Shown: positions 3,901 through 61,036 of the stretch, piece after piece
Layout of the letters: each line of letters begins with the position of its first letter
Position numbering within the stretch: position 1 is the stretch's first letter
NCBI GenBank assembly: GCA_038087875.1
Contig: CM075989.1
Coordinates: 12,216,001-12,280,000 of the forward strand
Origin: Malacoraja senta
Taxonomy: Eukaryota
DNA length: 64,000 nt
Direction: 5' to 3'
Notes under the pieces: generated by a model
The model's input: the letters and a program-made list of their open reading frames with translations, nothing else
Database searches by the model: none
What the model was told of the DNA's origin: nothing
Translations under genes and position numbers: made by a program

Positions 3901-6900
3901 GTTGTAATGATAGACAACCTTCTTCACTGTCCACTTTACAATCAGGTACATGGATAGGAAAGGTTTAGAGAGATGTAGGCCAAACGCTGGCAGGTGGGAT
4001 TAGTATAGATGGAGCACTTTGGCCAGCATGGGCAAGCTGGGTCAAGGGGCTTGTTTCTGTGTTGTATGATTCTAAGACTAACAATTTTGCTGTAATTCAC
4101 AAATTCACTAAACGTGTTACCTACATTCACATCTACATCATTATTATAAATAACAGTGGACTCAGAACAAATTCCTATTCCACTTATTATAGGCCAACAG
4201 TGTGAAAACAACCCTCTACAACCATGCTGTGTCTCCTACCTTCAATCAGTTTTGTGTCAAATTGGTTAGCTTGGCCTGGATCCCATGTGACTTAACGTTC
4301 CAGACCAGTCAAATTTGTGAAGCACGATATCCCATGCACTAAGCCATGCTGACTATCACTAATCAGTCCTTGCTTTTCCAATTGCATATTGATCCTGTCT
4401 CTGAGAATCCTCTCCAAAAACTTACCCATCATTGATGCAGAGCTCAATGGTCTGAGTTCTCAGGGTTTTCTTTGCAGCCTTTCTTACCTATAGGAACAAC
4501 ATTAGCTATCCTCCAGTCTTCTGGCTCCTCACCCTTGGCTATCAATGATAGAAATATCTCTGCCGGTGGCCTCATAATTTCTTGCTTAGCATTTCATAAT
4601 GTACTAGGATACACTTGATCAGGTCCCTAGGGTTTATCCATGTGTTCTTAAACCTCCAGCACATCCTCTTCTGTAATATGGACTCTCTTTGACATGATCA
4701 TTAAATTCCCCGAGTTCCCTAAAATCCATATCCTTCACCACGGTAAAGAGGGTAGCACAGTGGCACAGAGATAGAGTTGCTGTCTTACGGTGCCAGAGGA
4801 CCGGGTTCGATCCTGACTATGAGTGCTGTCTGTTGGAGTTTGCATGTTTCCCTGTGATCACGTGGGTTTTCTCCATGTGCTCCAGTTTCCTCCAACATTC
4901 CAAAGACGTGCAGGTTTGTAGGTTAATTGGCTTCTGTAAATTGTCCACAGAGTGTAGGATAGAACTAATGCAAGGGTGATCATTGGTTGGCACAGACTCA
5001 GTGGGCCTGTTCCCACACTGTATCTCTAAACTAAACTAAAAAATGAGATGAGAAATATTCATTTAATACCTTGCCCAGCTCCTATGGCTCCATGTACAGA
5101 TGGCCTTGTTGATCATTGTGGCCCTATTCTCTCCCTAGAATACACTTTAGAGCCTCTATCTCATGTCCCCTTTTTGCCCTCCTGATTTCCCTCTTAAATG
5201 TATTATTATACCCCCTCCCCATTTTCCTTAAGGGATACATTTGATCCCAGCTGCCTCTACATGACATACAGCTCCTTTTTCTTGACCAGAGCCTCAACTC
5301 TTGTCATCCGTTTCCTACTCCTGCCAGCCTTGACCTTTACTCTAACAGGGACATGTATGCCTTGAACTTTCACTATTACACTTTTAAAAGCTTCCCGCTA
5401 ACTAGAGAACCTTTTGCCAGCAAACAGCCTCCCCCACTAAACTTGTTGAAGTTCCTGTCTAATACAGATGCTGCGATGAGATCCAAAGCCATGATCCAGG
5501 CAAAATTGAAACTGCAAATCCAATTTTAAGATTTTGTTTTGTTTTTTTAATTGCATCGCACCAAAGAGGAAGTATTGAAATGAATAATTAATGTGGTCCT
5601 GAAATAGCATCTGTACATTTATGAAAATGGTAGATCCGGAGAAGATTGAACTAACAGGATTCACTCGTACAAGATCAGGGACAATGTACTCCGTATTAGT
5701 CCTCAGGTAACCATAATCAGACACGCAGGCCTGAGATATTATTGTGCTACATGGGGAATGTGGTTAAACATACGGAGGGAGTAGCAGAGGTATTCCCATG
5801 ATGATCCAGAGGCCTCGTCTGCAGCAGAGGAATACACAAATTATGAGACCACCAAAATGGCCAATAAGGCATAAAGTTTTACCTAGCACTAGCCCACTCA
5901 AGAATGATATTCTATACAAAACATAAAAGACTTATGAAGGTCCATTTTTATCTCACTACAGTAACTGCAACTGTGCGGATAAGGGAAAAAAAACAAATTA
6001 TTATTACTAGAGATATCTTCATCATTAAATGATGGTGCGAGTCTGTGCAGCGTCTGTGTTATTTTACTTAAAGCTAGCTCTGGAGTGTATTCCTTAGCAA
6101 CAGAGATATTGCCAGAAAACTCCCCAAGGATGTTCCCATGGTAATCAAGTGAATAATTAGAACGACGACAAAGCCTGTTCATGCGACCATCAGAAAAGTG
6201 GCTCTTCTTGATGAGCAGATTAAGTAGGATTAATTATGTTAGCAGCAACTGATCATGTACTTATCTGCTTTTGAGTGTCACATCGCCAATAACTAGATGT
6301 CTGTGCAATAAATAAAGATGCTGCAACTGATCTCCAAATGTGTATATTAATTGGGGAGAGTGTGTGGACGACTCCTGCTGAGGTACAAGATTGATTGAAA
6401 TAAATATGCTTCTGCTTGATCTAAGAGCTGATATTCTGTAAGTGATACTTTGCTCTATAACAACACAATCAGTTTTGCTTTTCCACAGAGCACTTTTAAA
6501 ATAAAATTCAAAGTTACATTTACTATGCCTAACCCCAGCAAAAGATTTCCTTTATCCAAATATCATACCTCTGTGTCAATTCTCTTTGGCTGATGTTGAG
6601 AAGCAGTGATTTGGTTCTTCAGGTCTGCGTCAGACATGAAATGTAAAAAAGAATGATACCATGCTAAGATAAGCAAGACAACACAAAAGTCTATTCATGG
6701 AGGAAGGCAATGTTTCCATGTTACACCACTGGCGTGCTGAAAGCTTCAGAAAGATTTTGACAATTATTCAAGTACTTATTGAAAAGGAGAAATGGCAGAT
6801 CATTTTGAGAAAAAAAGTCTCTGGAGCTTTCTAAGCCATTTTACAAAGGGGACAGCTCTACTTTCATTCTCAACTTCCAAACTCAAGCCTTTGCTGGGAG

Positions 6901-9900
6901 AATGAAACCGGCATACTGTACCATTTAAAAAATCATGGAAGAGTGTTTCATTCCTCATCATCAATACCACACCGCTGTGTACATCGAAGATTAAGTTTTT
7001 ATTCCAATTGCAATGGAATGTTTTGAAATTTAAAGTACGCCAGTTGAGGGGATTTTTGAAATCACGAGGTAAATTTCTACCGGAATATGTAAAAATGTCA
7101 CCGTTTCGGCGTTGGGTGTTCGAGGAGAGTTTTAATAAGTACTAGACTAAGTGGGACCTGTTGGGTCCAAGCATATCACGGGAGGGCTGGTCCCCCAACG
7201 CAATATTCCACCTCTCCACCAATTCCAATATTGGTGGCCAGTGGGGAGGGGGGAGCTTTCTGGAGCGGTAGTATGGGTGTTGTGCGCTGAAGGGACTGGT
7301 TTCCAGAGGGCTAGTATGGACAAGACTAGGCTTGTATTCATTGGAGTTTAGTAGGATGAGGGGGATCTTATAAAAACATATAAAATTATAAAAGGACTGG
7401 ATAAGCTAGATGCAGGAAAAATGTTCCCAATGTTGGGCGAGTCCAGAACCAGGGACCACAGTCTTAGAATAAAGGGGAGGTCATTTAAGACTGAGGTGAG
7501 AAAAAACTTTTTCACCCAGAGAGTTGTGAATTTATGGAATTCCCTGCCACAGAGGGCAGTGGAGGCCAAGTCACTGGATGGATTTAAGAGAGAGTTAGAT
7601 AGAGCTCTAGTGGCTAGTGGAGTCAAGGGATATGGGGTGAAGGCAGGCACGGGTTATTGATAGGGGACGATCAGCCATGATCACAATGAAATGGCGGTGC
7701 TGGCTCGAAGGGCCGAATGGCCTCCTCCTGCACCTATTTTTAATGTTTCTATGACATTGTGGGCTGATTCTTGGGCTGGCGGCTCAGTCACTCAAGTCTG
7801 TTGTGTTGGCAGCTCACTCACTCACGACTGGTGGGCTGGCAGTTAACTCACGGCTATTCCTTGAAATTCCATTTCAAACAGGGTGCAAGGCCACCAAATT
7901 CAAGTGCAGTTTCATACCATTTCAAGCAGGGTGCAAGGCCACTATAGACAGTGAGTCGTGACCTCTCCCTCCCCCATCTTGCAGAGACTGAGCCACGCCC
8001 ACACTTCCGGGTTTTACAGTCCCTCCCCCCTCCCACCAGAAGGGACGTGGCCTTCATGGCGTGATTGACAGGAGAGAGAATCTCAACATTTTTTAAACAC
8101 TAATAACTTTTTTTATTTTTCATCGATGGGAAAAATCCTCGTCCTGCGCAGTGGAGGGGGACTCTGAGCACGATGGCCAAAAATCACAGCCGTAAGTGGC
8201 AGCGTTTTTTCTAAAATCAATATACAGCACAACAGGAAGTGGTCAAGATGAGACTTTTAGTAATATAGATATGATATAGAGATCTCCATACCATATCTAC
8301 ATTACTAAAAGTCTCATCTTGACCAGGGGAGTAGAGAGGGAGGGGAGGAGAGGGGGTAGTGAGGGAGGGGAGGGGAGTAGAGAGGGAGCCACCCTACCAC
8401 CTCCTCTCCCTATCCCCTCCTCTCCCTCAATCTCCCACACTCCCTCCTCACCTCCCCAGGACCTTTCCCCTCTCCACCGCACTCCCCACTCCATCTCCCT
8501 CCTCCAGCCCTCCCCATCTCCCTCCTCAACATCCCCCTCCCCATCTCCTTCTACCACCCCACTCCCCACCCCATCTCCCTCATCCTCCTCCCCACCCCCA
8601 TTCCCTGCCCCAGCACCTACCCAGGTCGTAGAGCAGTGCCAGGGATTCAGCCTGGTTCACATACTCAGCCCAGCCCTGGCTGTGGACTCCAGCCGTCAGG
8701 TCGGCCGCCGACTGGGCTCCAGTCCAGGTCCCGACTTCACCTCCGGGCTTGTCCCTAACCCCGGACCTTGGTTCCAGCAGCGGCTTCTTTCTCGGCCCCA
8801 GTCACGGCTCCATCCCAAGCCCCGAGTTCGGCCCTCATTCCAGCTACTGCACCAGGCTCAGCTCTAACCCAGGCCCAGTCCCTGGGCTCGGCCCACTCCA
8901 CCACCCTCTCCACCAGGTACTGGGCGGCCGTCGGGCGCCGCCACTCCTCGTTCACCACGAGCACTGGAAAGCCCCTCCCGTCCCACCTGGCGAGTGCATT
9001 TTTTCCGAAATGGGTACGTTTTTGGGGCTGTTTTTTTAATTTAAAGGATTGATAACTTCGGAAATATAGGTGGGAATGCGACGGGAATATGTTTATCGCC
9101 ACAACGAGAAAAATGTGAGTAGGATGTGTGAAAATGGGAAGGCTGTGGCCTAGCGTTTGGAAGTAGATAGGAAAACCAGATTGACACATCGTGGGCACAA
9201 ACAAGACGAAGACTTTTAGGTATATAGAGATATCTCAACTGATGTATTTTAAATTAATATTATAGCTACAGAGAATAAACCAAATCAGCAGCTTTCATTA
9301 GTATTATTAATACTATGTGGCGGAGTAAATTGCCAAATCATCCATGGGCTTAATCACATAAATACTTCTGTTAAGATCTATTTGATTATACATTCAAATC
9401 ATTTCACCAAATTAAAGCAGATATTGCTCAAATATGAAAACTTTGTACCTTCGATTAATTCTTTCACAACTTCAACTGCAGATTTTTCTTCCAGAACCTC
9501 TGGCCAGCCAGTTTCACCTGTTTTCAGTCCTTCAGCTAAAACCTGTTACAAAGCACATGGGAAACAAGTTCAAGTTACATTCATTGTCACATGCATCAAT
9601 TGGTACAGCGAGATTTGAGTTACCATACAGCCATACAATAAAAATAACACAATACAAATAACACAAGTGGCTGTCCCACTTGGGCGACCTAATCTGCGAG
9701 TCCAGAAGAGTGTCTTCGACCTTCAAGCTCGAGGGCACTCGCCTGGAAAGCCTCGAGCTGGATCGACCGTCCGCGTTGAAACCGTGAGCTGGATCGACCG
9801 ACCGCACACACACACACAAACACATCGCAAAGGCGGGGGCCAGGGAAAGCGGGGGAGCGCTCTGAAAATCACACCCGCGATGAAGAAGAAGGTAAAACGG

Positions 9901-15900: not shown

Positions 15901-18900
15901 CATTCATCCTCATGCCATTTGTGATAACCCTATTAGTGGTAATCATTGTGGGGGGATGATTTTTGTCTGTAAATGATATTTTATTTTGTGTCCAAGATGG
16001 CTGCCGGAGGGGAGAGTGGACGCTGGCGCGCTTTAGCAGCCGCTGCTCTCTCTTCCATATTGTGTTTTTGATTTTTGTTTTTGGATTGAATTCTGGCTTT
16101 AATTTGTGTACTCGTGATGTCTTTACTATTTATTTCATTCCGCTTACATGTTTCTACACGTTGTTAAACTTTGTAAGGTGTCCTTGAGACTTTTGAAAGG
16201 CGCCCATAAATAAAATTTATTATTATTATTATTATTATTAATTTATTTCATAACATATTGTACCAAATTAATACTTTAATAATACACATTTGCTTACCAG
16301 GGTGGCAACCGATGAAAGTGAGGGAGCTTCTAGGATATTCACCACGTCGTTCCAAGCTAAATCCACCATAATATTACTCTGTGAATCCATGATTGTATTA
16401 TCCAAAATGGAGGCACCAAACAAATCATACTGTGCATAGCCTTTGGTCGATATCTGCATCATGACAATAAACCATAACTCTGGGTACTGAAATATTAGTA
16501 CATTGAAAAAATAATTTTCAGTCAAATCCTATCTGTCGCAACCTCAGCAAAATATAAAGCTATTTATAGGTAATGAGATATTTGACAAGGTACTGCATCT
16601 GGAAGATTAGATTGCATGGGACCCAAGGCAATATAACCAGTTGGATACAAAAATGGCGTGAAGGTAGGAAACAGAGGGTGGTACCAGATTATTGTTTTTC
16701 AGACTGTAACAAGTGGTGCACCACAAGGATCAGTACTGGGTCCACCGTTGCTCTTTATTAATATTAATGATTTGGATGGGAATGTATTTGCCATAGCTGG
16801 TAAATTTGTGTCTGACAGTAAAATTGGTAGTGTAGTGGGCAGAGAAGGTGGTCTATGATTACAATAGGATCCTAATCCTGATCAACTGAGCGAAAGAATG
16901 GCAGATGGAGTTTAATTCAGATAAATGGCAGCAGCATTTGGCATGCTTCGCAGTTTGGCACATAGGTCAGGGTTTTGTGTAGAGTTGGCATGTTATGTTT
17001 TAGCTGAACTGGACGTTGACAAGACCGCATAAAGCAAATCTGGATAGGTTGGATCGTTTTCCTTTCAAACTAGCGGGAGATCTTACAAAGCTACATAACA
17101 TTATGAGGGACATATATAAGATGACTCGCCACAGTCTTTATCTCCATAGTGTAGGTGAGTCTAAAACTAGAGGTATAGGTTTAAGGTGACTTTTAAGGAG
17201 CAACTTTTTCCACACATAGCCTGGTGTATACAGATGAGGAGGAAATGGAGAAGTGGGGAAGACTTATTGCATATAAAAGTGCTTAGACGGGTACATGGAT
17301 AGGAAAGGAATATGGGACAAACGCAGGCAAGTGGGGCTACCTTGGTTAGGCAACTTGGGCAGCATGGACAAAGTGGGTTAAAGGGCCTGTTTCTGTGCTG
17401 TATAGGTCAGTGACTCCATGGGTCTCTGCTATTCAACAGTCATTTTGCACACAGAAATATTGTAGATGGAGACAGCATTCTGCATGCATATTAGCTGCTC
17501 AGTTTTCCGTAATCCAACTATCACTGAACTGTAAAAATGATTTAATTGACCATAAAAAATGTTAGCACATCCTGAGTTTGTGACAGTAATGTAATTTATA
17601 AATCACTACAACATCTAAATATATGTTTGCACACTTCTAAACTCCTAAAAAAAAAATCTATACAAAATTTAATAAATACTGGTAAAATACTACACTCTGG
17701 AAATAAGAATTTAAAACCCCCCAGAAAATTCTGGAAAGCTGAGGAGGTCAGCTGCATGTGTAGGGAGGGATAAAGAGTTAGTGTTTCAGGTTATGACCTC
17801 AATTTATGATTACAGGAGCGGTGGATCCAAGCAACCAGACCAAGGAATTACGTACATAATCTTGATTAAAATTGAAAAGAGTTTAACAACAAAACCAGAG
17901 GCTTAACCTTCTCAACATCTTCAACATATTTTAAAATTTGAAGCTTTATCAAAGTCATTTATAATTGAAAAGGGGCAAGAATACCTACAGCAGAACAAAG
18001 ATGTCTGTCCTTGTGTGTAGTTTTCAAACTTTCTAAGGTTGTGAAACTGTTTTTGTCAACAATTGGTCCTAAAAGAATGAGGAATTACAGTCAAACACAA
18101 AATGGTCTTTGTGCGTTCTATAAACTATAAACTTAAAGATTAAAAGAATCAGCATATTTATGATAATTTCACAATCTAATCTGCTGACAAAATAAACTAT
18201 ATTTTATATTTTTTATACTTAAATTTACCACCAAACTATTCCATTAAGTTTTATATACTATATATTAAATGGTGGGCCAAATGGCTTCCTTCACTGCCTT
18301 AACAAGTCTAATACTCTACTCACCAAGATCAAATGTAATGCTTTAGTGAATGGTAACTGAAGATTAAGAGGCAATTGACATGTGTGTTGATGTGGGAAGA
18401 AAGAATATTGCAGCATCTGTGGTAGTTCAAAAGAGTCTCAAACAAAGTTAATTCCTGGGTTGAGAGGATTGCCTTATCAAGAGGCTAAAGCAGATGAGAT
18501 CTGTACTACATGGAGTTCGTGGAGCTGTGATCTTATTGAAATTTATAAGATCCTGAAGGGGCAGGACAGGGTAAAGGGTTGAGATGTTTTTCCTTGTTGA
18601 ATGAGGGACATATTTTAAAGATAAGGGTGATAGTAGTCATTTAAAACCATCTTCTGTGACTAGTGACTCATTGGAATTCTCTGCCCCAAAGAGTTGATGA
18701 GGTTACTCATTAGAAATATTTTTTAGTGCAGGTTGATACATTTTTGAAAGATTGAGGGATCTGGCACTGATAAGAAAGTTAGGCCAAGGATTGGTCAGCC
18801 AGGATCATATTGAATGGAGGGGCAGGTTTGAACGGCCAATTATTTTTAAAAGGGCTATGATGACATCTCACCAGTGCACGTGACAATATGAAAAATCATT

Positions 18901-21900
18901 GGCATAACCTCTTTCCAGGCTTTAACAATTTCAGCTCTTCAAACTGCCTTCAGTGTCAGAGCCATCACATCTCACCCACAGTAGACACGCTGTGACGTGC
19001 AGATTATGGGCCAGGGTGGACCAGAAAACCAACTGCACTTATTCTCTTCTATTCTTCTAGTGCAGGGGTCGGCAGCCTACGGCCCCTGGGCCGAATGCGG
19101 CCAGTAACCCGAAATCATCCGGCCCGCAGGCGGATTTTGTTTCCTGTATTCATCCGGCCCACCAATCACCTGCCCTGAGCGCGGCCGAGCTCTGGCTGTA
19201 CCGCATCCTGTGCAAAGCCGCCGGCACAGCCGCGCACCTTCTGCAAACACGTTTAAGAAAGAACTGCAGATGCTGGAAAAATCAAAGGTAGACAATAATG
19301 CTGGAGAAACTCAGCGGGTGAGACATGCAAGGATGCCTCACCCGCTGAGTTTTTCCAGCATTTTTGTCTACCTTCTGTGAACACGTGATTTGATGCCTGC
19401 CATCCGGGGAAGGATCCATGTGTACACGTGATAGATGTGACCCGCCATCCGCTCACAGACATGCGTCCCGGCCCCTGTGCAGAACAAGGTTGCCGAACCC
19501 TGTTCTAGTGGTTGCATTTTTATGATGTGTATTCAACCCATATTTGAATGGAACGTATTGATTTTAACTTGTTAGGCTGCAATTACACCTCCTAGTGAAA
19601 ACGGACTCAGCTAATATTTAATGCAATTATTTTAAAAAGGGCTATCATGCCATCTTACCAGAACATGTGACTATGTGGAAAATCATTGAAGCAATCTCTT
19701 TCCCAGTTTTAATGGGTTCCGCTCCAAACCAAACAGTGCCTTCAGAGTCAGAGGCATCACATCTAACCCACAGCGAAGGAAACGTAGTAGGCACGATGCA
19801 GCTGGTCATTTGTGACATGTGCGGATTATGGGCCAAGGTATACCAGGAAACTAGTTGTCTGTGAGGAGGAAAAATAAATAGATAAACATTGTAGATGAGA
19901 AAGTAATACAAGAAGTAAACTTAGATTTAAGTCAAGTGTGTCATAGATACTAGCCTCAAGAAACTTCCAATCTGGCTTATTTAAAAATACCACAGTGCTA
20001 GAGTAATCCAAGGGGTCAGACAGCATCTATGGAGAACATGGATAGGCCAAGTATTGGCTCAGGATCTTTCTTCAGACCAATTGTGATTGTGAGGGAGGGA
20101 GAAAATGCTGGAAGAGAGGTGGATGTGGGACAGGTGCAGGGTCTAGAGAATATTGCTTTGCATCATGGCCTGGTTCGACAATTTGAATTTCCAGAAACAA
20201 AGCAGTTTACAAAAAGTAATACATGCTGTCCAGTCCATCATAGGTAATGGTCTCCCCACCATCAAAGGGGTGCTCAAAAAGGCAGCTAGCATCATCAAGG
20301 ACCACACTATCCTGGCCACATTCTCATTTCACTCAATACTGGGAAGAGGATATAGGAATCTGAAAATCATGACCTCCAGGTTCAGGAAGGGGAAAGGGAG
20401 AAATCGGTCCACATCTAGTCAAGGCACAGGGAACAGATGAGGAGAGGAGGGGGAGGGTGGAAGGGATTTGTTTGGAGATTAGTTACCGCTAATTGGAGAA
20501 TTCAATGTTAAACCTAATTCAACGTTAAATGTGTGGCAGAACAATCACTGAACATTGAATTCACTAGATTTAGGCAATTAACCTACAGAGGGGTGGAAGA
20601 TTGCAACATTCAGGTGGTCCGCCCTGTTTCGTCGAATGCAATCAACCCGGCGTGCACAATCAAATAAGATCAAATAGAACAAGTTGTCCTACAACCTTAG
20701 GCTGTGCACGCCATACACAAGAAGAACCTACAATCCCACCTATCCCCCCTCACCCCCCCCCATCTGCACCCATTTCTCCCTCCCCCCCCCCCCTCCATCT
20801 ATATTCCTTCCTCCGGCTTCACATTTCACATCTCCTCTATCCTTATCTCATACTTTTTTATCTCTAGCCTTTGTCCAACCATCTACCAAACATCTCCTAT
20901 CCGTGTTTTGTAGAGAAGCTGCCTGATCCTCTGAATTACTCCAACACTATGCGTCTTCTTTTTGTGTCATAGTTACTGATATTTTGATTACCGATGACAT
21001 CTGCTATCTTTGAATATTTTCATTTTGTTTTAAAGTATTTTGAAATAGCCGGACTATTTTGCAGGGGTTCAATCCTGAATCTTCAATTTCTGCTTACACC
21101 AGGTATAGCTTCCTAAAAGTCCCGCAGGACTACGGAATTGTATCATTTGTACAAAATACCCAAAAGGCCGATCGCCCAACCTAACTCATTGCAGCCCTTG
21201 CACTTTAAAACAAAAAATTTATTTTGTTTTAATTGATTAAAAATTGTTATTTTTCTCTTTGCTACCTAATGTACTTGCATATGGCTTGAATGGACCCTTG
21301 CATGGTATGATTAGACTGGGTAGGATGCAAAACAAAAATGTTCACTGTATCTCAGTACACATGACAATAATACACCAACATCAATATAGCATTTTCTTTA
21401 TAGTTGTGTTCAATCTGTGTACGTGTACCCCTTTCAGTGACTTTATTTGCTCTATACGCCCCTTGCTTGCCCTTTATTATGATTTTGAGCAAATGTAGTT
21501 AGATTGCTTGAAGATTAAATTATTAGGCTAATACCTAGCCGTTGCCCTAACAACAGATATTAATATTTTGTATGTGACAGGTACTTTTAAGGAAAATTTC
21601 TGTGTCTATCACAAAAACAAAGGCGATCAATTCCTACAAATTAGTCCTACAAACCTAACTAGCACAGAAAATTGCTAACATTTTAATTCCAATAAGACTT
21701 CCAATTATCTTTCTGCTATTAACCTTCAATATGATCAGCACCATATATCAATGATCAAATTATCCACCTTTGATATATAGATACATAGAAAATAGGTGCA
21801 GGAGTAGGCCATTCGGCCCTTCGAGCCTGCACCGCCATTCAATATGATCATGGCTGATCATCCAACTCAGTATCCCGTACCTGCCTTCTCTCCATACCCC

Positions 21901-24900
21901 CTGATCCCTTTAGCCACAAGGGCCACATCTAACTCCCTCTTAAATATAGCCAATGAACTGGCCTCAACTACCCTCTGTGGCAGAGAGTTCCAGAGATTCA
22001 CCACTCTCTGTGTGAAAAAGTTTTTTCTCATCTCGGTCTTAAAGGACTTCCCCCTTATCCTTAAGCTGTGACCCCTTGTCCTGGACTTCCCCAACATCGG
22101 GAACAATCTTCCTGCATCTAGCCTGTCCAACCCCATAAGAATTTTGTACGTTTCTATAAGATCCCCTCTCAATCTCCTAAATTCTAGCGAGTATAAGCCA
22201 AGTCTATCCAGTCTTTCTTCATATGAAAGTCCTGACATCCCAGGAATCAGTCTGGTGAACCTTCTCTGCACTCCCTCTATGGCTATAATGTCCTTCCTCA
22301 GATTTGGAGACCAAAACTGTATGCAATACTCCAGCTGTGGTCTCACCAAGACCCTGTACAACTGCAGTAGAACCTCCCTGCTCCTATACTCAAATCCTTT
22401 TGCTATGAAAGCTAACATACCATTCGCTTTCTTCACTGCCTGCTGCACCTGCATGCCTACTTTCAATGACTGGTGTACCATGACACCCAGGTCTCGCTGC
22501 ATCTCCCCTTTTCCTAATCAGCCACCATTTAGATAATAGTCTGCTTTCCTGTTTTTGCCACCAAATGGATAACCTCACATTTATCCACATTATACTGCAT
22601 CTGCCAAACATTTGCCCACTCACCCAGCCTATCCAAGTCACCTTGCAGTCTCCTAGCATCCTCCTCACAGCTAACACTGCCCCCCAGCTTAGTGTCATCC
22701 GCAAACTTGGAGATATTGCCTTCAATTCCCTCATCCAGTTCATTAATATAAATTCTAAATAGCTGGCGTCCCAGCACTGAGCCTTGCGGTACCCCACTAG
22801 TCACTGCCTGCCATTGTGAAAAGGACCCGTTTACTCCTACTCTTTGCTTCCTGTTTGCCAGCCAATTCTCTATCCACATCAATACTGAACGCCCAATACC
22901 GTGTGCTTTAAGTTTGTATAGTAATCTCTTATGTGGGACCTTGTCGAAAGCCTTCTGAAAGTCCAGATACATCACATCCACTGGTTCTCCCCTATCCATT
23001 CTACTAGTTACATCCTCGAAAAATTCTATAAGATTCGTCAGACATGATTTACCTTTCGTAAATCCATGCTGACTTTGTCCAATGATTTCACCACTTTCCA
23101 AATGTGCTGCTATCCCATCTTTAATAACTGACTCTAGCAGTTTCCCCACTACCGATGTTAGACTAACTGGTCTGTAATTCCCTGTTTTCTCTCTCCCTCC
23201 CTTCTTAAAAAGTGGGGTTACGTTTGCTACCCTCCAGTCCTCAGGAACTACTCCAGAATCTAAAGAGTTTTGAAAAATTATCACTAATGCATCCACTAAT
23301 TCTGGAGCTACTTCCTTAAGTACTCTGGGATGCAGCCTATCTGGCCCTGGTGATTTATAGGCCTTTAATCCATTCAATTTACCCAACACCACTTCCTGAC
23401 TAACCTGAATTTCACTCAGTTCCTCCATCTCCTTTGACCCGCGGTCCCTTTCTATTTCCGGCAGATTATTTATGTCTTCCTTAGTGAAGACGGAACCAAA
23501 GTAGTTATTCAATTGGTCCGCCATATCCTTGTTCCCCATGATCAATTCACCTGTTTCTGACTGCAAGCGACCTACATTTGTTTTAACTAATCTCTTTCTC
23601 TTCACATATCTATAAAAACTTTTGCAGTCAGTTTTTATGTTCCCTGCCAGTTTTCTTTCATAATCTATTTTCCCTTTCCTAATTAAGCCCTTTGTCCTCC
23701 TCTGCTGGTCTCTGAATTTCTCCCAGTCCTCTGGTATGCTGCTTTTCCTGGCTAATTTGTACGCACCATCTTTTGCTTTGATACTATCCCTAATTTCCCT
23801 TGTTATCCACGGATGCACTACCTTCCCTGATTTATTCTTTTGCCAAACTGGGATGAACAATTTTTGTAGTTCATCCATGCAGTCTTTAAATGCCTTCCAT
23901 TGCATATCCACCGTCAACCCTTTTAGAACTAATTGCCAGTCAATCTTGGCCAATTCACGTCTCATACCCTCAAAGTTACCTTTCTTTAAGTTCAGAACCG
24001 TTGTTTCTGAATTAACAATGTCACTCTCCATCCTAATGAAGAACTCAACCATATTATGGTCACTCTTGCCCAAGGGGGCACGCACAACAAGACTGCTAAC
24101 TAACCCTTCCTCATTACTCAATACCCAGTCTAGAATAGCCTGCTCTCTCGTTGGTTCCTCTACATGTTGGTTTAGATAACTATCCCGCATACATTCCAAG
24201 AAATCCTCTTCCTCAGCACCCCTGCCAATTTGATTCACCCAATGTATATGTAGATTGAAGTCACCCATTATAACTGTTTTGCCTTTGTTGCACGCATTTC
24301 TAATTTCCTGTTTGATGCCATCCCCAACTTCACTACTATTGCTAGGTGGCCTGTACACAACACCCACCAGCGTTTTCTGCCCCTTAGTGTTTCGCAGCTC
24401 TACCCATACCGATTCCACATCCTCCAAGCTAATGTCCTTCCTTTCCACTGCGTTAATCTCCTCTCTAACCAGCAACGCTACCCCACCTCCTTTTCCTTTC
24501 TCTCTATCCCTCCTGAATATTAAATATCCCTGGATGTTCAGCTCCCAGCCTTGGTCACCCTGGAGCCATGTCTCCGTGATCCCAACTATATCATAATCAT
24601 TAATAGCTATCTGCACGTTCAACTCATCCACCTTATTACGAATGCTCCTTGCATTGAGACACAAAGCCTTCAGGCTTGTTTTTACAACGCTCTTACCCCT
24701 TATAAAATTATGTTGAAAAGTGGCCCTTTTTGATTTTTGCCCTGGATTTGTCTGCCTGCCACTTTTACTTTTCACCTTGCTACCTATTGCTTCCGCCCGC
24801 ATTTTACACCCCTCTGTTTCTCTGCTCACCCATTTAAGAACCCCACCATCTCTTATTCTCTGTTTATTATTGTTTTCTTCTTTCCCCCCTACATGTTGGG

Positions 24901-27900
24901 TCTGAGTGCTTTCCTTCACTGCTTCCTGCCTCACACACTGTCTAATAGCTTTCTCTATTTGAGTCCCTCCCCCCAACCATTCTAGTTTAAAGTCTCCGCA
25001 GTAGCCTTTGCAGATCTCCCCGCCAGGATATCGGTCCCCCTCAGGTTCAAGTGCAACCCATCCTTTTTGTACAGGTCGCACCTACCACAAAAGAGGTCCC
25101 AATGATCCAGAAATTTGAATCCCTGCCCTCTGCACCAGTCCTTCAGCCACGCATTTATCCTCCACCTCGCTCCATTCCTACTCTCACTGTCGCGTGGCAC
25201 AGGCAGTAATCCCGAGATTGTTACCTTTGCTGTCCTACTCTTTAACTCCCCTCCTAACTCCCTAAATTCTCCTTTCAGGACCTGCAGATATGACCTTGAC
25301 CATTGATCAGACATACTTAAATCATCACATACAAATTAATTCTCATTACCTGACAGAGGGAATCAGTTCCATGTTTGAGTGCCAAGAATTGCAATCATTC
25401 CAAAGATAAAAGACGGGTTAATTACCATGAATAATACAATTCAGCAAGAGAGCCTTCCGAATTGAAGAATCATATCATTTTCAATGTGAATCTGAGAAAT
25501 GAACAGCATTTCTCCAAACTTTGCAAAGCATGTGTCCAAAATTCAATGTATGGTATATATGACACTGCTATTATTTTGCTTTTACCTTGCTTTCATGACC
25601 GATAGAGGCAATGGACCCACATCCTCTAAATTACTAGATGTTACCTTCCGGGTTTCATTATCATTATTAAAAGTGTCTTCCAAGTCGTCTTCATTCTCTT
25701 TAGGTGACTATGGGGAAAAGGGGAATCTGTAGTCAGCCCAAGCAACTGAAGAAAATAAAAAATTATAGCTATGCTGTCTGTGTATGACAAAAGCATTGTG
25801 CATTTGAAGCAATGCTTTATCTAAAGACTCAAAATTTCCAAACTAATTCATCAAGTGTGATCATAAATATTAAGTATTGCAGATAATCAACTGTAGGAAA
25901 CAAATCAGAGCCTAGCCCAATTCAAAAGCAGTTTTCAGACACCTACCACAACTTGTAACACATTTTTTTAAACTCTAGAATAAAGCTAAAACTGGGTCAA
26001 ATTCTACTGTCCCAGTTTTCCCCAACAATTGAACTTGCAGCTCATAATTAAGTTAGGGATTTTCTAAGGATCTATATCACACAATGGATATGATCCACTA
26101 ATCAACACACAATACAATTTTAAATGCATGGAAAATAAAAATGAAAGAATCTCTTAGATTTTAATGTGTAGGAAAGAACTGCAGATGCTGGTTAAAAACA
26201 AAGGTAGTCACAAAATGCTGGAGTAACTCAGCAGGACAGGCAGCATCTCTGGAGAGAAGAAATGGGTGACGTTTCGGGTCAGGACCCTTCTTCAGACTCC
26301 AGCATTTTATGTCTACCCTCTCTTGGATTTAAAAATGTGTAAGTTCTTTAAAAATGTGTTTGTAAATACATATTGTGATTTGATTTCTCCCCACGAATAG
26401 TCAGAAGGAATCATAATGAAAACAAAAGGTTCTTTCACTGTTCTCAAAAACATCAAATTTTAATAAACCAGCACTTCAATCCGAAAGATGACAAGGATCA
26501 GTAATAGAAAGCATTATGTCTGAATGACAGAAAAAACTCAAAAGTAAATACAGAAAATGAATATAAAAGGTTATGGAGTCATTATGCAGTTTACTGCTGT
26601 TATGATTTTGATATGTGGAAATTTGGAAAAGTCAACATCCTTTTACTTGGAGTGACAAGAAGTCAAAGCACAAAGTCACAAAATAAAGTTTTGCCTTTGT
26701 GTTAAGACTTAATTCATCATTAAGTATATTAGCCTCAAATTATGTTGCTGGAAACATCTTTCAGCAAGCTTGAGTAATTTAACATAGAATTATAATTTAC
26801 ATACTTACTGCCATTTCTGCTATGAACACCGATGCATTCTCCTTCCAGAATGCACGCAAGGGACTTTTATTCACTTCATCTACAATGTATACTTGGACAT
26901 CATCCTGTGAGACAAATAAAGATAAATACATTTTTACCCAATCTTTGAACATCCCAAAGCACTTTATAACCATAAATTACTTAAAACCTGCAAGCGCAGT
27001 TATAAAGTAGAAAACACAAATAAAGATGATAAAGATCTAACCTACCACATAAACAATTGAAAACATAATAATGATATTGGTGGGTGTAGTGGGGGTAAGA
27101 TAAAGAGTACAATTTCACACCTTGTTGGTACTAATTTGATGTGTCACTGAGTTGTAGAACAGGATATGTGCATGAATAATTCTCGGCAATGATGTGATCT
27201 TTATTTCAACCACAACATTTCAACCACTAGGTAAATTTGAGAAATGTTTAATACAGGCAGATCCCACTTGTGTGAACTCAAGCCTGGTAAGAAAAACTAT
27301 AGGTGTTTTGAAGGAAATGTCACGTCCTCAATATAAAATATATCTATATCACACAATGGATATGATCCACTAATCAACACACAATACAATTTTAAATGCA
27401 TGGAAAATAAAAATGAAAGAATCTCTTGGATTTTAATGTGCAGGAAAGAACTGCAGATGCTGGTTAAAAACAAAGGTAGTCACAAAATGCTGGAGTAACC
27501 TAAAATTGTTGATAAAATTAATTATCAACAATTTTAGCTGTGACCCAGCAAATTAAAATATAAAAAATGCTATTCATATTCTTTACACAAATTATTTCTG
27601 TTGGCATACCTAAGAATTTTCAAAATATAAAAGCACAATATACTGAGCACGTGGTACTGAAATCTACCCAGCAAATCATGAGAAATAGCAGGCGTTGGCC
27701 CTTTGAGCTTGCTTTGCCATTCAACATTTTTTTTTAAGAAATACAGAATGGAAACAGGATCTTTGGCCCACCAAGCCCATGCTGACTATCAATTCCCCCA
27801 TTCACACTAGTTCTGTTATCCCACTTTCTCACCCACATCCAATACATTAGGGACCATTTTACACAGGCCAATTAACCTACAAACCCGCAGGCCTTTGGGG

Positions 27901-30900
27901 CATGAGAGGAAACCAGAGCACTCAGAGGAAACACACGTGGTCACAGGGAGAACAAGCAAACTCCACATAGATAGAACACAACATCATCATCATGATTGAT
28001 CCTAGGTTTCTGTCGCTATGAGGCAACAGCTCTGCCAGTTGCACCATCTCAAATATAACCATACAGACCAACATACCATGTGAGACGTTGTATAAAGTCT
28101 TGTTAAAGTCCATGTTGACAATATCTATTGCCCTGCCCTCGTAAATCCACTTGGTTACCTCTTCGAAAAATGTAATCACATTTTTTAGACATGATTTCAT
28201 ACACACAAAGCTGCAATCTTCTGAAAAACTCCAAATGACCCTCAGCAGTCTCATTTAACTACGTATCCATTCATCAATCAAGAAATGTCCTTTCCAATAT
28301 GCAGGCCAGTAACAGGATTTATGGAAAGTTGGTAATGCACTCTATTATTATGGTTTTCTACCTAATTGTGTTACTAGATTTTCTGTATAAAGAAAAATTT
28401 CATATTGTTAGAGGTGTTCTTGCTGGTGTTTTTTTTTTAACCACTTCAGTACCACTTTTTACAGAACATAATATTGACAGTAAAACACTTAAACTTGTGA
28501 ACAAACTGGTCTATCCATGGATTCCATGGCTGTAACTCAACCGTAAGTTGTGGATTGTCTCTTGTAACTTTTATTTGGCTGTTTATTAAATGCTTTTTGA
28601 AACTCCACTTTTTCACATTCTCCAGATTACTTTGAACAAGTTTATCATAAATCCACATGGACACCACCAATTCTATTCTGAACATGACCCTGCTGTTGGC
28701 ATTTAGCAGCTGTTCTGACAAATGGTCGAGAGTTCCCTGTTTTCTCTTCCTTCTTTCCAGAATGGCAAGATCCATAGCACTGATCCTTTGCTAAATATTT
28801 TAGGCTTCAGTCTATTATGAACTGCTTATTTCAAGAACTGACAATTTTCAGAATGCTCATCACGTTTAAACTCACACTTTGAAAAGAAATGGTCAAGGAC
28901 AGATTAAAAAATAATTGTGCTTAACATTCCATTTCCAAAGCAGCTCATACGATCCAAGAGAGGATGTGAAGTTAGAAATGAGTATCATTACATGCTGAAG
29001 CTGAACCAACTTCCACGCATGAAATCATCAAGCAGCAATATGTCTATGAGAAACAGCAGTGGCTGAAAATTATCATCAAGAGAAAGTGCTGGACTGGGAA
29101 TACAAAGCATTAAAGAACAGGCAGAAAAAATATGACCTTGTATTGCAATTTCAGGGATGTGTTCAATGGAAGAAAGACAACAAAGAAAGTAGCTTTTCAG
29201 GCACATTACCTCAAACAGCACGGGGTCCTTTAGTGTTCCTTTCTTTCCTTGGTCACAAAGCCTGAGAAGAAAAAAATTTATACTGAAAGACAAAATCAGA
29301 CTGCAGCTATGTTTATACATATGGGTATTAAGTTTTGTTTATATTGTTTTACGGAAGAAGTTCTTGCCATTCTAAAATGGAGATATAAATCACATTTCTA
29401 GAATAAAGAAATATGGAGACAGAAGAAAATAAAACATGTATCCAAAATAACAAATTACTTAAAATTTTAATGTAAATAACATTAAGAATCTTTAAAAAAT
29501 GGAAGCCAAGCACAGCCCAGGTGAGAGCACCATACATCATTACTTTGGTATTTCAACACAGTTGACCTGGTAACATTATCTGATATTCTTATAATTTGCT
29601 TATTGCACTAGTTAAACATAAAGCACTTCCCTAAAATGTTTTCCATGCTGATCAACTTACTCTTAAAGATTAGTCCTTCAAACAACTTTGCTGCCAATGA
29701 GCCAGTAGCACAGATGGTATGTCTTCATAGCGAGAGCATTTGAGTATAGGAGCAAGGAGGTCCTACTGCAGTTGTACAGGGCCCTGGTGAGACCGCACCT
29801 GGAGTATTGTGTGCAGTTTTGGTCTCCTAGTTTTGAGGAAGGACATTCTTGCTATTGAGGGAGTGCAGCGTTAACCAGGTTAATTCCCGGGATGGCGGGA
29901 CTGACATATGATGAAAGAATGGATCGACTGGGCTTATAGTCACTGGAATGTAGAAGGATGAGAGGGGATCTTATAGAAACATATAGTGTTATAACGTAGG
30001 CCATTTTGGGCTGGGAAGAGGATAAACTTTTTCACCCAGAGAGTTGTGAATCTGTGAAATTCTCTGCCACAGAAGGCAGTGGAGGCCAATTCACTGGATG
30101 TATTCAAGAGAGAGTTGGATATAGCTCTTAGGGCTAATGGAATCAAGGGATTATGGGGAGAAAGCAGGAACGGGGTACTGATTCTGGATGAACAGCTATG
30201 ATCATATTGAATGGCGGTGCTGGCTTGAAGGGCCGAATGACCTACTCCTGCACCTATTCTCTATGTTTCTATGTCTTGTCAGGATTCTGATAAGCACCTG
30301 AACAGGTTGATCAATGAGAGATCTGTAGATTTTATCTTTCATTTTGTTGTTGGCGCTATTATATGGATTTGAAAGATTTAATTACATAGGATCCAGCACG
30401 AGCTAACCAATTGGATACAAAAGTGGCTTGAAGATGAGACAGAGGTTGTAAATAATTGTGTTTCAGACTAGAGGCCTGTAACCAGTGGTGTGCCACAAGG
30501 GTTGGTCCTTGGTCCATTGTTGTTCGCTATTTATATTAACAATTTGAATGTGAATGGATAGCAAGTTTGAGGGTGACTTCAACATTGGTGGTGTAGTGAC
30601 CCTTCTTCAGACTGAAGGGGGGGGTGTTTGGACCCTTCATCAGACTGATATGGGGGGAGCAATCTGGAAGAAAGCTGGGGGCAGAACAAAGTCTGCCAAG
30701 GCAAAAGTCGATACGAATGAGAAGAGCGCTTTTTGATCGCAGATGGTTGAACAAAAGCCACAAATGAAAAGACAAGGAGTATAAGATAAGGATAGAATAT
30801 GAGATAAGGGAGGATATACCTCATCCCTGAATGGATGGATGTGAGGGAGGAGGTATATGGCATTACTTCTCTTGCAGTTGCATGGAAAATACCTGGGAAG

Positions 30901-32889
30901 GGGGTGATTTAGATGGTGAAGGGATGTTAATTGGGCTTCTCCATTGCCAGAGTGAGGCCACACGCAAACTGCTTGGGTGGCTTACAACCTAACAGATTGA
31001 ACATTGATTTGTCCAATTTAAAGTAACTAACCTACAACCAACCCACCTTCCCTTCTTTCACTTCAATGGGGAAACCAGGATGTTCTCTAAATGATGTGTT
31101 TGCAGCTAGAAATAAATATTTCACTTTAAAATTCTCATCCTTGTTTTCAAATACCTCAATGATTTCATTAAAAAAAAATTAAGTGCTGGAGTAACTCAGC
31201 AGATCAGGCAGCATCACTGCTGAACATGGATAGGTGACATTTTGGGTTGGGACCCTTCTTCAGACTGATTGTACATGGGGAAAATACAGCTGGCGGAAAG
31301 GAGGGGCAGGACAAAGCCTGACAACTAATGGGTTGATACTGGTGAATGGGATTTCTCCACCTATATTCCTTCCTCTAGCTTCACAATTTGCAACTCTTCA
31401 ATTGTTTTGAATTTTCAGCTCTGGCCTTCGTCCAACCATCTGCCTATCAAAACCCCTCCGCACCTGTATTAACTTATAACCTGCCAGGCTTCGTCCTGCC
31501 CTTTCTCCACCCTCATCATCCCATAAATCTGAAGAACAGTTCCAACTCAAAATGAGTTGCTTAAATCAGCTGAGTTACTTCAGTACTTTCTTTCTTCTCT
31601 TTTTTGGGGGGACTCTTTCTTTTTTGTGTGTAAACTAGCATCTGCAGTTCCTTGTTTTGTTTCTACGTCTCAATGATTTCAGTGCTGAGCTCTACCCCCA
31701 ATTTTAATTCTGAGCTCATTTCAGTTATCAAAGCCCTAAGGTCTAACTCTAAATCTACCTACGTTCAATAAGATGATCTTTAAGACACATTTATTGACCA
31801 AATTTAGTCATCCACGTGGTGCTTTGTAACTGGTTGAGGTTTCCTCTAGTTGCTACATTTTACTCCCACATTAAAAAGACTGTTAACTGGCCACTGTAAA
31901 TTGCCCCCAGTATGTAGGCGAGTGGTAGAATCAAGGGGAATGGATGGGAGGAGGGGAATAGATTTGGATTAGTGTAGGATGGATGTAATTGGGTGATCAA
32001 TGATTGGCAGACTCAGTAGGTCAATGACCCATTTTCGTGTTGTATATCTCTACTTGTTGTGCCTTATTTTCTCAATATCAGTATCAAATGTTTTGAAATT
32101 ATTCCTTTGAATCACTTTCAGAAAATGTACTTCAAAAATACTGTATGAATAAAAGTTATTGTTGTGGTGGGGTTGGTGACAGCTCTGATTTGCCAAAATA
32201 GCAACTGTTTTCTTAAAGCAAGATTTCTGGCCATGATCTCACATATTGTACGCGATCAGTTAATGCTGCCCTGTACATGACACAGCCTCGACACAAGTAT
32301 CATGCACATAGAATCACAATCCTCTAAACCGGGGACATAAAAAGGTCTACCATTACAATTTGATGTTTTCAAATAATCAATCACGAACAACATTGCACTG
32401 AAAGCTGTCGGTCTACTGTCAAATAACAATTGAATTTCACCAAGTGTTGGGGGGATCTCAGCAAATTGGCAGTGCATGTGCAGGGCTATGGACAGCAACG
32501 ATACTCTTCTATGATCTTTGATGGACAGTCTGAAGACGCTACCTGATCCGCCGAGTTATTCCAGTATTTCGTTTTTACTCAAGATTCCAGCATCTCCAGG
32601 CTCTTGTGACTCCAACTATTGATTTAATCTCGCGTTTCTTCAAATATTAATCTATATCCTTCTTTGAATTATACTACTTAATCTTTCCCTCCATCCTTTC
32701 ATAAAATACATTGCAGACCATAGTAACTGCGCTACACCCCCCCAAGGAGTTCTGCTGCCGATGGTGTTAAAGTTGCGCATTCACTGATTCAGATGATAAA
32801 CACCCATCACTGGAACTGGCAAGCGTCAACACTCACCCAAGGAGAAAGGAGTGAAAGCTTCGCACCGACTGTAGAACAGCTGAGCCCAT
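828..32889 (-). CDS. ZWILCH: Zwilch kinetochore protein (RZZ complex), coding exons 1-11; 3' part lies outside the window
   Basis: complement(join 32837-32889, 29210-29261, 26809-26904, 25586-25707, 19659-19858, 17989-18068, 16298-16453, 13394-13465, 9449-9542, 6569-6624, 828-936). All GT-AG with consistent phases, 1090 nt. Motifs [31 protein letters not shown] and DLDFAEQLW match vertebrate ZWILCH; head-to-head with RPL4 as in human. Confidence 0.93.
999..1426. mobile_element. Non-autonomous Tc1/mariner-superfamily MITE
   Basis: ~21-bp TIRs (CAGGTCCACTACTGATTTTCC / GGAAAATCAGTGGCGGACCTG) flanked by TA on both sides. Confidence 0.8.
2961..3310 (-). mobile_element. Young CR1 LINE 3' fragment nested in older CR1 remnants (approx. 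2730-5520)
   Basis: (ACATAGAA)n tail; near-identical to the 3' end of the 21780-25285 element. Confidence 0.85.
4750..5040 (+). mobile_element. tRNA-derived SINE (HE1/V-SINE-like)
   Basis: A/B-box head (GGTTCGATCC), GTGGGTTTTCTCC...TTTCCTCC core, (AAACT)n tail. Confidence 0.8.
6569..6624 (-). CDS. ZWILCH: ZWILCH exon 10 ([19 protein letters not shown])
   Basis: 56 nt, CAG acceptor, GTATGA donor; phases 1/0 bridge exons 9 and 11. Confidence 0.8.
7142..8269 (-). mobile_element. Non-autonomous Helitron with a nested CR1 3' fragment
   Basis: On minus: 5' TC (A|TCTATATTACTAAAAG), subterminal hairpin GGACCCAACAGGTCC, 3' CTAG|T; no TSD. Confidence 0.78.
7328..7752 (+). mobile_element. CR1 LINE 3' fragment
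   Basis: RT C-terminus ([14 protein letters not shown]) plus CR1 3' tail. Confidence 0.88.
8296..9230. mobile_element. Probable further Helitron-related fragments with low-complexity C-rich interior
   Basis: Copy of the Helitron 5' end on plus at 8296; related 5' end (TCTATATACCTAAAAGTCTTCG) on minus at ~9228. Confidence 0.5.
9449..9542 (-). CDS. ZWILCH: ZWILCH exon 9 ([31 protein letters not shown])
   Basis: 94 nt, CAG acceptor, GTACAA donor. Confidence 0.92.
9666..10467. mobile_element. TIR MITE, probably PIF/Harbinger-like, with internal (GGGGGGGAGAA)n tract
   Basis: ~63-bp near-perfect TIRs GGCTGTCCCACTTGGGCGACCTAATCTGCGAGT...; inserted inside another repeat (approx. 9567-11170). Confidence 0.8.
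11882..12765 (+). mobile_element. CR1 LINE 3' portion, degraded
   Basis: [28 protein letters not shown] motifs with frameshifts; CR1 tail. Confidence 0.9.
13394..13465 (-). CDS. ZWILCH: ZWILCH exon 8 ([24 protein letters not shown])
   Basis: 72 nt, TAG acceptor, GTGAGT donor. Confidence 0.92.
13861..14420 (+). mobile_element. CR1 LINE 3' fragment
   Basis: [19 protein letters not shown]...; (ATTGTCT)n tail. Confidence 0.9.
15989..16240 (+). mobile_element. Short retroposon with L2-like 3' end and (TTA)n tail
   Basis: TGTAAGGTGTCCTTGAG...GAAAGGCGCCCATAAATAAA followed by (TTA)7. Confidence 0.6.
16298..16453 (-). CDS. ZWILCH: ZWILCH exon 7 ([12 protein letters not shown]...PSLSSVATL)
   Basis: 156 nt, CAG acceptor, GTAAGC donor. 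Confidence 0.93.
16590..17420 (+). mobile_element. Old degraded CR1 LINE fragment
   Basis: [13 protein letters not shown] motif; CR1 tail. Confidence 0.8.
17989..18068 (-). CDS. ZWILCH: ZWILCH exon 6 ([26 protein letters not shown])
   Basis: 80 nt, TAG acceptor, GTAGGT donor, phases fit. Confidence 0.87.
18838..19035 (-). pseudogene. Decayed tandem duplicate (pseudo-exon) of ZWILCH exon 5
   Basis: Aligns to 19625-19858 including downstream intron; translates [13 protein letters not shown]...[12 protein letters not shown] then frameshift/stop; GTGAG donor retained. Confidence 0.85.
19063..19502. mobile_element. hAT-family (Charlie-like) MITE with a nested fold-back element at ~19253-19374
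   Basis: TIRs CAGGGGTCGGCAGCCT / AGGTTGCCGAACCCTG; perfect 8-bp TSD TTCTAGTG at 19055-19062 and 19503-19510. Confidence 0.9.
19659..19858 (-). CDS. ZWILCH: ZWILCH exon 5 ([12 protein letters not shown]...LWVRCD...IVTCS)
   Basis: 200 nt, CAG acceptor, GTAAGA donor. Confidence 0.93.
21780..25285 (-). mobile_element. 5'-truncated, young CR1 LINE: ORF1 SGNH-esterase C-terminus plus near-intact ORF2 (APE endonuclease + RT)
   Basis: ORF1 ...KDGLHLN; ORF2 [47 protein letters not shown]. One frameshift near 22563 and one TGA near 22519; CR1 3' tail. Confidence 0.96.
25586..25707 (-). CDS. ZWILCH: ZWILCH exon 4 (SPKENEDD...[12 protein letters not shown])
   Basis: 122 nt, TAG acceptor, GTAAAA donor; VGPLxLxVxKAR motif. 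Confidence 0.88.
26170..26317 (-). mobile_element. Penelope-derived fold-back element with minimal hammerhead ribozyme motif
   Basis: GAACTGCAGATGCTGG...AATGCTGGAGTAACTCAGC arm, inverted partial arm, ~20-bp flanking duplication; minus strand reads CTGAAGAAGGGTCCTGACCCGAAACGTC. Confidence 0.75.
26264..26299 (-). ncRNA. Candidate minimal type I hammerhead ribozyme
   Basis: GT-CTGAAGA-A-GGGT(CCTG)ACCC-GAAACGTC-AC: catalytic core boxes, stem II, palindromic ACGT stem III, GUC cleavage triplet. Confidence 0.65.
26809..26904 (-). CDS. ZWILCH: ZWILCH exon 3 (DDVQVYIV...VFIAEMA)
   Basis: 96 nt, CAG acceptor, GTAAGT donor. Confidence 0.88.
27738..28045 (-). mobile_element. tRNA-derived SINE (HE1/V-SINE-like)
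   Basis: Reverse complement of the SINE core seen at 4750. Confidence 0.7.
29210..29261 (-). CDS. ZWILCH: ZWILCH exon 2 ([17 protein letters not shown])
   Basis: 52 nt, pyrimidine tract + AG, GTAATG donor; resembles human KKGIRKDPFLYE. Confidence 0.88.
29722..30273 (+). mobile_element. CR1 LINE 3' fragment with internal deletion
   Basis: [21 protein letters not shown] sequence and CR1 tail. Confidence 0.88.
30597..31060. mobile_element. Penelope-like element relic, rearranged/inverted
   Basis: Minus: [16 protein letters not shown] Cys-linker-like motif. Plus: [29 protein letters not shown]-terminus-like. Reverse hammerhead cores at 30599-30647. Confidence 0.7.
31168..31668. mobile_element. 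Penelope-derived fold-back element
   Basis: Inverted arms; perfect 13-bp TSD CTCAATGATTTCA at 31155-31167 and 31669-31681. Confidence 0.8.
32837..32889 (-). CDS. ZWILCH: ZWILCH coding exon 1 ([18 protein letters not shown])
   Basis: ATG at 32889, 53 nt, GTGAGT donor, phase fits exon 2. Confidence 0.8.

Positions 32890-33427: not shown

Positions 33428-43376
<9,949 letters not shown>

Positions 43377-47171: not shown

Positions 47172-61036
<13,865 letters not shown>

Follow-up and report, generated by a model that had tools for sequence, protein, structure and literature searches.

A minimal hammerhead motif at the head of a likely Neptune-type Penelope-like element insertion in ZWILCH intron 3, predicted to be folded off

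A complete minimal hammerhead motif is present in intron 3 of ZWILCH, in the sense orientation, within the window (the whole 64-kb stretch of DNA analysed here). It is very probable that this is a real minimal hammerhead ribozyme (min-HHR) motif heading the 3′-end insertion of a likely Neptune-type Penelope-like element (PLE), that it would be folded off as predicted and that it is likely inert. The motif is a further example of the class described in 2014; it has the sequence features of PLE min-HHRs and would work like them.

The hammerhead motif and its host intron

The focal motif, the gene structure around it and the strands are as follows.

26268..26295 (−), minimal type I hammerhead core, C3 at 26295 and C17 at 26268
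26295-26289 (−), CUGANGA box of the focal core
26264..26267 (−), 3′ strand of the residual helix I, also part of the predicted competing inactive helix
26809..26904 (−), ZWILCH exon 3 (homologue mapping and run X4 contig)
25586..25707 (−), ZWILCH exon 4 (homologue mapping and run X4 contig)

The minus strand from 26299 to 26264 carries the full conserved set of core elements, namely CUGANGA, an unpaired A, helix II, GAAA, a loop-less ACGU palindrome and GUC, with the predicted cut between 26268 and 26267. The boxes, the GUC triplet, the loop-less palindrome and a short imperfect stem I read in the minus-strand letters just as the initial annotation had given them. Stem II, proposed there as 4–5 bp, comprises 4 bp and a 4-nt loop; a fifth pair is unrealistic because it would leave a loop of 2 nt. 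Helix I consists of two contiguous pairs, or of four with one A bulged, the bulged form being supplied by an inverted fragment of the same insertion. With regard to the sequence tests for PLE min-HHRs, the motif has both boxes and a UH triplet, and its palindromic positions 15.2-16.2 come without a helix III stem.

A strict descriptor (core, helix II of at least 4 bp, palindromic helix III and UH) was applied to both strands of the 64 kb and matched a single site, the focal one, so that no second intact core was detected in the window and the annotated status of best-preserved copy is borne out within it. At least one such site occurred in 4 of 300 dinucleotide shuffles, and in 1 of 300 if a helix I of 2 bp was added. 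Against a plain family assignment, the Rfam hammerhead covariance models yielded no match, neither in the whole window at E ≤1 nor in 26230-26330 at E ≤10. Bare CUGANGA...GAAA boxes were not above chance in the window (8 vs. 6.1 expected).

The host gene was identified from the exon at 19660-19860 (−), which matches Pfam Zwilch (E 1.4e-15) and has its best named homologue in sawfish (87%), followed by sharks and other rays (72–79%); one further protein reaches 94%. These matches make a batoid the likely host. By tblastn, this 94% homologue mapped to 11 minus-strand exons from 32889 to 817 with 367 of 600 residues placed, and ZWILCH runs past the window edge. Intron 3 extends from 26808 to 25708 with GT..AG ends and the acceptor at 25708. 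These bounds are confirmed by one contig of X4, a run of uncertain type from organism A, in which exon 3 is followed directly by exon 4; the same run has zero cover on the unique parts of intron 3 and is silent on the insertion in organism A. The sense placement within the ZWILCH pre-mRNA that had been claimed is thus supported by the Pfam match, the exon map and the intron ends. From the focal motif to the 3′ splice site of intron 3 there are 560 nt.

Several other features were observed in the window. A nearly intact LINE ORF2 lies in sense orientation in ZWILCH intron 4 at 21867-25081 (−); it encodes 850 aa with endonuclease and RVT_1 domains and then continues through a frameshift into 216 aa. 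A degraded second ZWILCH exon 5, with 68% over 22 aa, follows the genuine one some 800 nt downstream (18870-19040, −), and the final residues of the ZWILCH exon ending near 9441 (9441-9542 and 6569-6625, −) do not match the 94% homologue. On the strand opposite ZWILCH, two SNORD16 and four SNORD18 snoRNAs above the Rfam cut-off are located at 38487-42325 (+) in a host gene that is likely RPL4, to judge by synteny. A Tc1/mariner-type transposase ORF with HTH_Tnp_Tc3_2 and DDE_3 above cut-off resides in an intron of the kinase gene (55348-56202, +).

The insertion, its sister copies and the link to Penelope-like elements

The focal insertion comprises 154 nt (26165-26318) with the hammerhead at its head. 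On the transcribed strand a 15-nt AT-rich repeat is followed by a 23-nt inverted fragment, the core, the body, a 38-nt tail and a second direct repeat.

26319..26333, likely target-site duplication, upstream copy, AT-rich, 15 nt
26296..26318 (+), inverted, 5′-truncated, tail-less fragment of the same element, joined with a 3-nt overlap
26165..26298 (−), repeat in forward orientation, probably a PLE 3′ end / pLTR piece, 5′-truncated 3 nt before C3
26203..26224 (−), 22-nt arm in the forward copy with 91% complementarity to the inverted fragment; the two are predicted to enclose the core in a long hairpin
26165..26202 (−), 38-nt 3′ extension, in the forward copy only, which fits the 30–40 bp PLE tail
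26150..26164, likely target-site duplication, downstream copy, 13/15 identical to the upstream copy

Two of the insertion signatures of PLEs were found at the focal site: 5′ truncation with an adjacent inverted truncated copy, and a one-sided tail. The former was also seen in the copies at 57.5 kb, 36.8 kb and 19.3 kb. Upstream, the sisters at 31.2 kb and 52.3 kb share a flank unlike that of the focal copy, and this shared flank also predominates among the loose ends that lie behind 26298 in each of the four runs. Because sisters and runs agree on this different flank, the focal copy can be said to retain just 3 nt of its native 5′ side; the inverted fragment stands in for the upstream flank and has taken the place of the native 5′ strand of helix I. 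In three DNA runs (X14, X16, X18), loose ends and joints cluster at 26209-26210 and at 26162-26167 among the ends listed, which fits two 3′ ends of the element, and inversion joints recur next to 26296-26298, again among the ends listed. One contig from organism E (26271-27331; 31 other letters, 10 gaps) spans the 5′ boundary of the insertion with more than 31 letters per side, and therefore the insertion predates the split from this organism. A contig from organism F includes just 23 letters of the insertion, too few to count as bridging.

The repeat is very abundant. At a likeness of at least 88%, 133,966 (X14), 127,925 (X16) and 147,782 (X18) contigs mapped on it, figures which are not a copy number, and the summed depth in these three runs exceeded 2e7 on the repeat vs. 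mostly 20–190 on the flanks. In the window, 14 copies were aligned, i.e. the focal copy and 13 decayed sisters on both strands that extend into the core region; fragments lacking the core, at 27.4, 19.3, 20.9, 57.5 and 59.5 kb, were left out. The following three relatives of the focal copy deserve a separate entry.

57584..57722 (+), sister most similar to the focal copy (86% identical), with a broken palindrome (G16.2 → A), antisense to kinase gene exons
31181..31266 (−), sister copy in ZWILCH intron 1, sense, with native upstream flank, G12 and C15.2 changed
27342..27499 (−), 158-nt, 99% identical duplicate of the element 3′ half and flank, in intron 2, without hammerhead core

The last of these duplicates 26070-26227 and lies beside a perfect 16-bp inverted repeat (27500-27537), resembling a templated insertion. 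Run X14 supports both the original and the duplicate. In organisms E and F, the contig matches break off at 27331, which suggests a recent lineage-specific duplication event. As a dimer partner for the focal motif the duplicate was ruled out, since it carries no core.

The core pattern with a free loop was then used for a metagenome search, in which 28 loci matched, forming one family with some redundancy; no match was obtained in viral contigs. This family and the batoid repeat have only about 29 nt in common. The same ORF was present in 18 of the 28 loci at E <1e-5, with Pfam GIY-YIG above cut-off (E 5.1e-5) and RVT_1 just below cut-off in locus L015, and in locus L008 it stops about 100 nt before the hammerhead core. 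The linked ORFs have a Neptune-type cysteine linker between reverse transcriptase (RT) and GIY-YIG; its CX2-5CxxC motif is found in L015 and in the shark protein P0040 and is degenerate in the window remnant. Named homologues of the metagenome PLE protein come from corals and sharks. At least three bases pair in helix I of 22 of the 26 distinct metagenome copies. L008:746-1928 and related loci represent an invertebrate-like Neptune-type PLE family whose core equals the batoid core except for the loop; this family has a different helix I of 3 bp, and its protein is about 45% identical to the shark proteins.

PLE proteins were also compared with the window itself. With invertebrate PLE proteins tblastn returned nothing significant (best E 0.069). 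Two shark homologues matched decayed pieces, weakly (whole-window E values from 9e-5 to 1e-3), and a profile of 83/85 homologues gave one match (E 0.00038).

36015..36287 (−), decayed PLE reverse-transcriptase remnant (shark homologue matching 36275-36015, E 8.9e-5)
30927-31023 (+), inverted C-terminal PLE piece (E 0.001, whole window)
30909-30834 (−), PLE linker-region piece (E 0.001–0.012, region picked afterwards)

The linker piece lies about 190 nt upstream of the truncated sister cores at 30646 and 30613, in the same orientation. The region 35393-36448 (−) appears as a decayed and rearranged PLE ORF remnant with an RT motif and a C-terminal piece, and an inverted pair of repeat copies (36770-36940) adjoins it. 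An RT/GIY-YIG ORF is absent from the focal site, and no full-length parent element of the batoid repeat was seen in the window.

The insertion signatures, the metagenome ORFs and the window remnants together uphold the earlier view of the motif as a PLE-type minimal type I hammerhead that would need a dimer, and argue strongly for a PLE origin of the repeat. Its relatives and the remnants make the Neptune clade likely. In the literature searched, mostly papers available without subscription, no description of this repeat family from sharks or skates was found, and it may have been annotated before.

The repeat could also be a short non-autonomous, SINE-like or retrozyme-like unit mobilised by PLE proteins, in which case the focal copy would still be an inert monomer. 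Many copies do begin at the core (the focal copy, 57584, and the inversion joints at 26296-26298), and non-LTR retrozymes, proposed to be derived from pLTRs, have been found in one chondrichthyan (bioRxiv 10.64898/2026.07.22.740005). We nevertheless consider this origin improbable: there is no tandem array at the focal locus, other copies reach upstream to various lengths, one of them into ORF remnants, and no copy starts at the cut site among the ends listed. A tandem retrozyme at the focal locus was rejected, as 25700-28200 contains no tandem unit.

Insertion of a PLE 3′ end remains our preferred explanation. At an AT-rich site of ZWILCH intron 3, a PLE RT/GIY-YIG protein would have copied in no more than the final ~135 nt of its RNA, and a short inverted copy would have been added in front during insertion.

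Predicted folding and activity

The focal motif was folded in six contexts (51–401 nt), and the probability of helix II was ≤0.01 in all of them. In the predicted off fold, sequence beyond the cut site base-pairs with the core as well as with the 5′ strand of helix II. When folding of the growing chain was modelled, helix II never rose above 0.12, the off helix stood at 0.82 once the chain extended 20 nt beyond the cut, and the duplex of the inverted arms had a probability of 1.0 by 65 nt. With matched flanks, the helix II probability was 0.003 for the focal copy vs. at least 0.5 for 21 of the 26 distinct metagenome copies (29 matches less 3 duplicates). For the sister at 57537-57722 (+), whose core sits at the apex of a long near-perfect helix I restored by its long inverted 5′ arm, a helix II probability of 0.80 was predicted. 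Forcing an active tandem dimer in context cost 30–37 kcal/mol for the focal copy vs. 17–19 kcal/mol for L008 in a tethered folding model; nearest-neighbour folding omits tertiary contacts and proteins, and penalises even this PLE-linked copy by the latter amount. For the excised focal core of 40–46 nt the dimer penalty was about 12 kcal/mol, the smallest modelled and better than that of the L008 core; once excised, the focal core may thus be capable of cleavage in vitro when dimeric.

Judging from these models, the stretch just past the cut site would engage the core and the helix II 5′ strand in the pre-mRNA, and the inverted fragment would then zip with its partner 45–65 nt downstream, so that helices I and II would fail to form. 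Helix III would need a second hammerhead. Most likely, intron 3 is spliced out and then broken down without having been cut.

The initial annotation had proposed that the motif self-cleaves in trans with another copy and severs the intron. Pairing through the ACGU palindrome with another transcribed copy would then cut intron 3 and affect splicing. The letters of the core are all intact and sense-oriented, the inversion yields the bulged helix I of 4 bp, the isolated core has the lowest dimer penalty of those modelled, and the genome offers a great many possible partners. Fast intronic ribozymes can moreover block splicing, while slow ones leave it unaffected (PMC10919898, citing Fong 2009). 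The core is, however, predicted to be sequestered in every folded context of at least 51 nt, the window contains no intact partner (ZWILCH extends beyond it and may have one in cis further downstream), and a trans dimer would depend on 4 bp plus two helices of 2–4 bp. Published min-HHR activity is low: monomers were inactive and dimers weak (Cervera and De la Pena 2014, PMC4209133; for dimer cleavage see also Lunse et al. 2017, as cited in PMC6765202), and for the Anolis PLE hammerhead cleavage required PLE protein, its cut site showing no RNA-seq read ends (Frangieh et al. 2024, PMC11167929). The distance to the 3′ splice site would correspond to roughly 8–10 s at the mammalian elongation rate given in PMC10919898. 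Severing of the intron by the focal motif is accordingly unsupported by what the window, the folding models and the cited papers offer; it is unlikely, and an effect on splicing through trans pairing has in our judgement a very small probability. We place as little weight on a wider reading, in which the batoid population of intronic min-HHRs would be cut in trans or with PLE protein and would lower host gene output genome-wide. On this view, 5′ inversions made at insertion sometimes rebuild helix I, which is long and perfect in the 57.5 kb copy and bulged with 4 bp in the focal copy, and intact sense copies could then sever host introns during transcription.

The decay of the sister copies bears on whether the focal motif has been selected. 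The CpG of the palindrome (C15.2-G16.2) is kept in none of the nine sisters with letters there, seven of which read TG or CA, and the C11.1-G12 CpG is kept in 4 of 12. In the focal copy both core CpGs are intact, and three non-core CpGs known from the sisters read TG. This pattern leans slightly towards selection; the copy was picked for its intact core. Across the 14 window copies helix II is 75% paired, and the two contiguous helix I pairs hold in all seven copies with letters. The covariation score of helix II, a test named in the initial annotation, was 0.081 and not above shuffles, 94 of 500 of which scored as high, in a small sample of 14 mostly decayed rows. Two double-sided changes in helix II were rejected as covariation, as they probably come from rows with an inversion junction as their 5′ half.

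A domesticated, selected intronic hammerhead that regulates ZWILCH in the manner of amniote RECK would account for the two kept core CpGs beside three decayed non-core ones and for an insertion common to the related organism E. Such a role is highly improbable. Picking one intact copy among 14 is expected to produce this pattern by ascertainment, the focal motif has no helix III stem, no stable helix I and a predicted off fold, and the amniote motifs are of a highly conserved type I across all amniotes analysed (PMC6155905). Survival of the core is most likely a chance escape from CpG decay at two sites and not a result of selection. A chance match without ribozyme ancestry, for which the Rfam result and the chance level of the bare boxes might speak, has next to no probability given the rarity of strict-descriptor sites in shuffles, and was rejected as contradicted by the same core standing behind PLE ORFs, with a different helix I, in the metagenome loci.

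Known systems and significance

Compared with the PLE min-HHRs of PMC4209133, the focal motif has a shorter helix II (4 bp vs. 7–8 bp in Schistosoma families) and a shorter helix I (2 contiguous bp vs. 4–5 bp), its native 5′ flank being lost. Two supplementary files of that paper contain no shark or skate min-HHR entry. Neptune PLEs (Craig et al. 2021, PMC8557442) resemble the focal insertion in 5′ truncation, an inverted truncated copy, a tail of 30–40 bp at one end and a hammerhead near the 3′ end, and the linked ORFs in the cysteine linker; the focal copy differs from them in having only 154 nt and no ORF. Alike in the Anolis Poseidon PLE (PMC11167929) are an AT-rich target, two 3′ ends that define the tail and a minimal hammerhead. 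AT-rich targets are described in that work, and the tail was traced to two starts of reverse transcription. The Anolis element belongs to another clade, and in it the ORF of a tandem copy begins within the hammerhead. Cleavage with PLE protein was demonstrated there, whereas the focal copy is known from sequence and predicted folding.

Non-LTR retrozymes (PMC7229834; bioRxiv 10.64898/2026.07.22.740005) are likewise high-copy, non-coding, PLE-linked repeats with a type I hammerhead. They form tandem units with mostly canonical hammerheads and circular RNAs, unlike the solitary minimal copy described here. The RECK-type amniote hammerheads (PMC6155905) also lie sense within an intron; they are few and deeply conserved, whereas the focal motif is one among very many decaying copies.

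As a compact example of the PLE signature of inverted copy and tail, the focal copy is of minor value. Trans cleavage of host introns, if true, would be an in vivo effect new for these motifs relative to the cited papers. Batoids provide a very large set of copies in which it can be asked whether introns are depleted of intact sense-strand cores.
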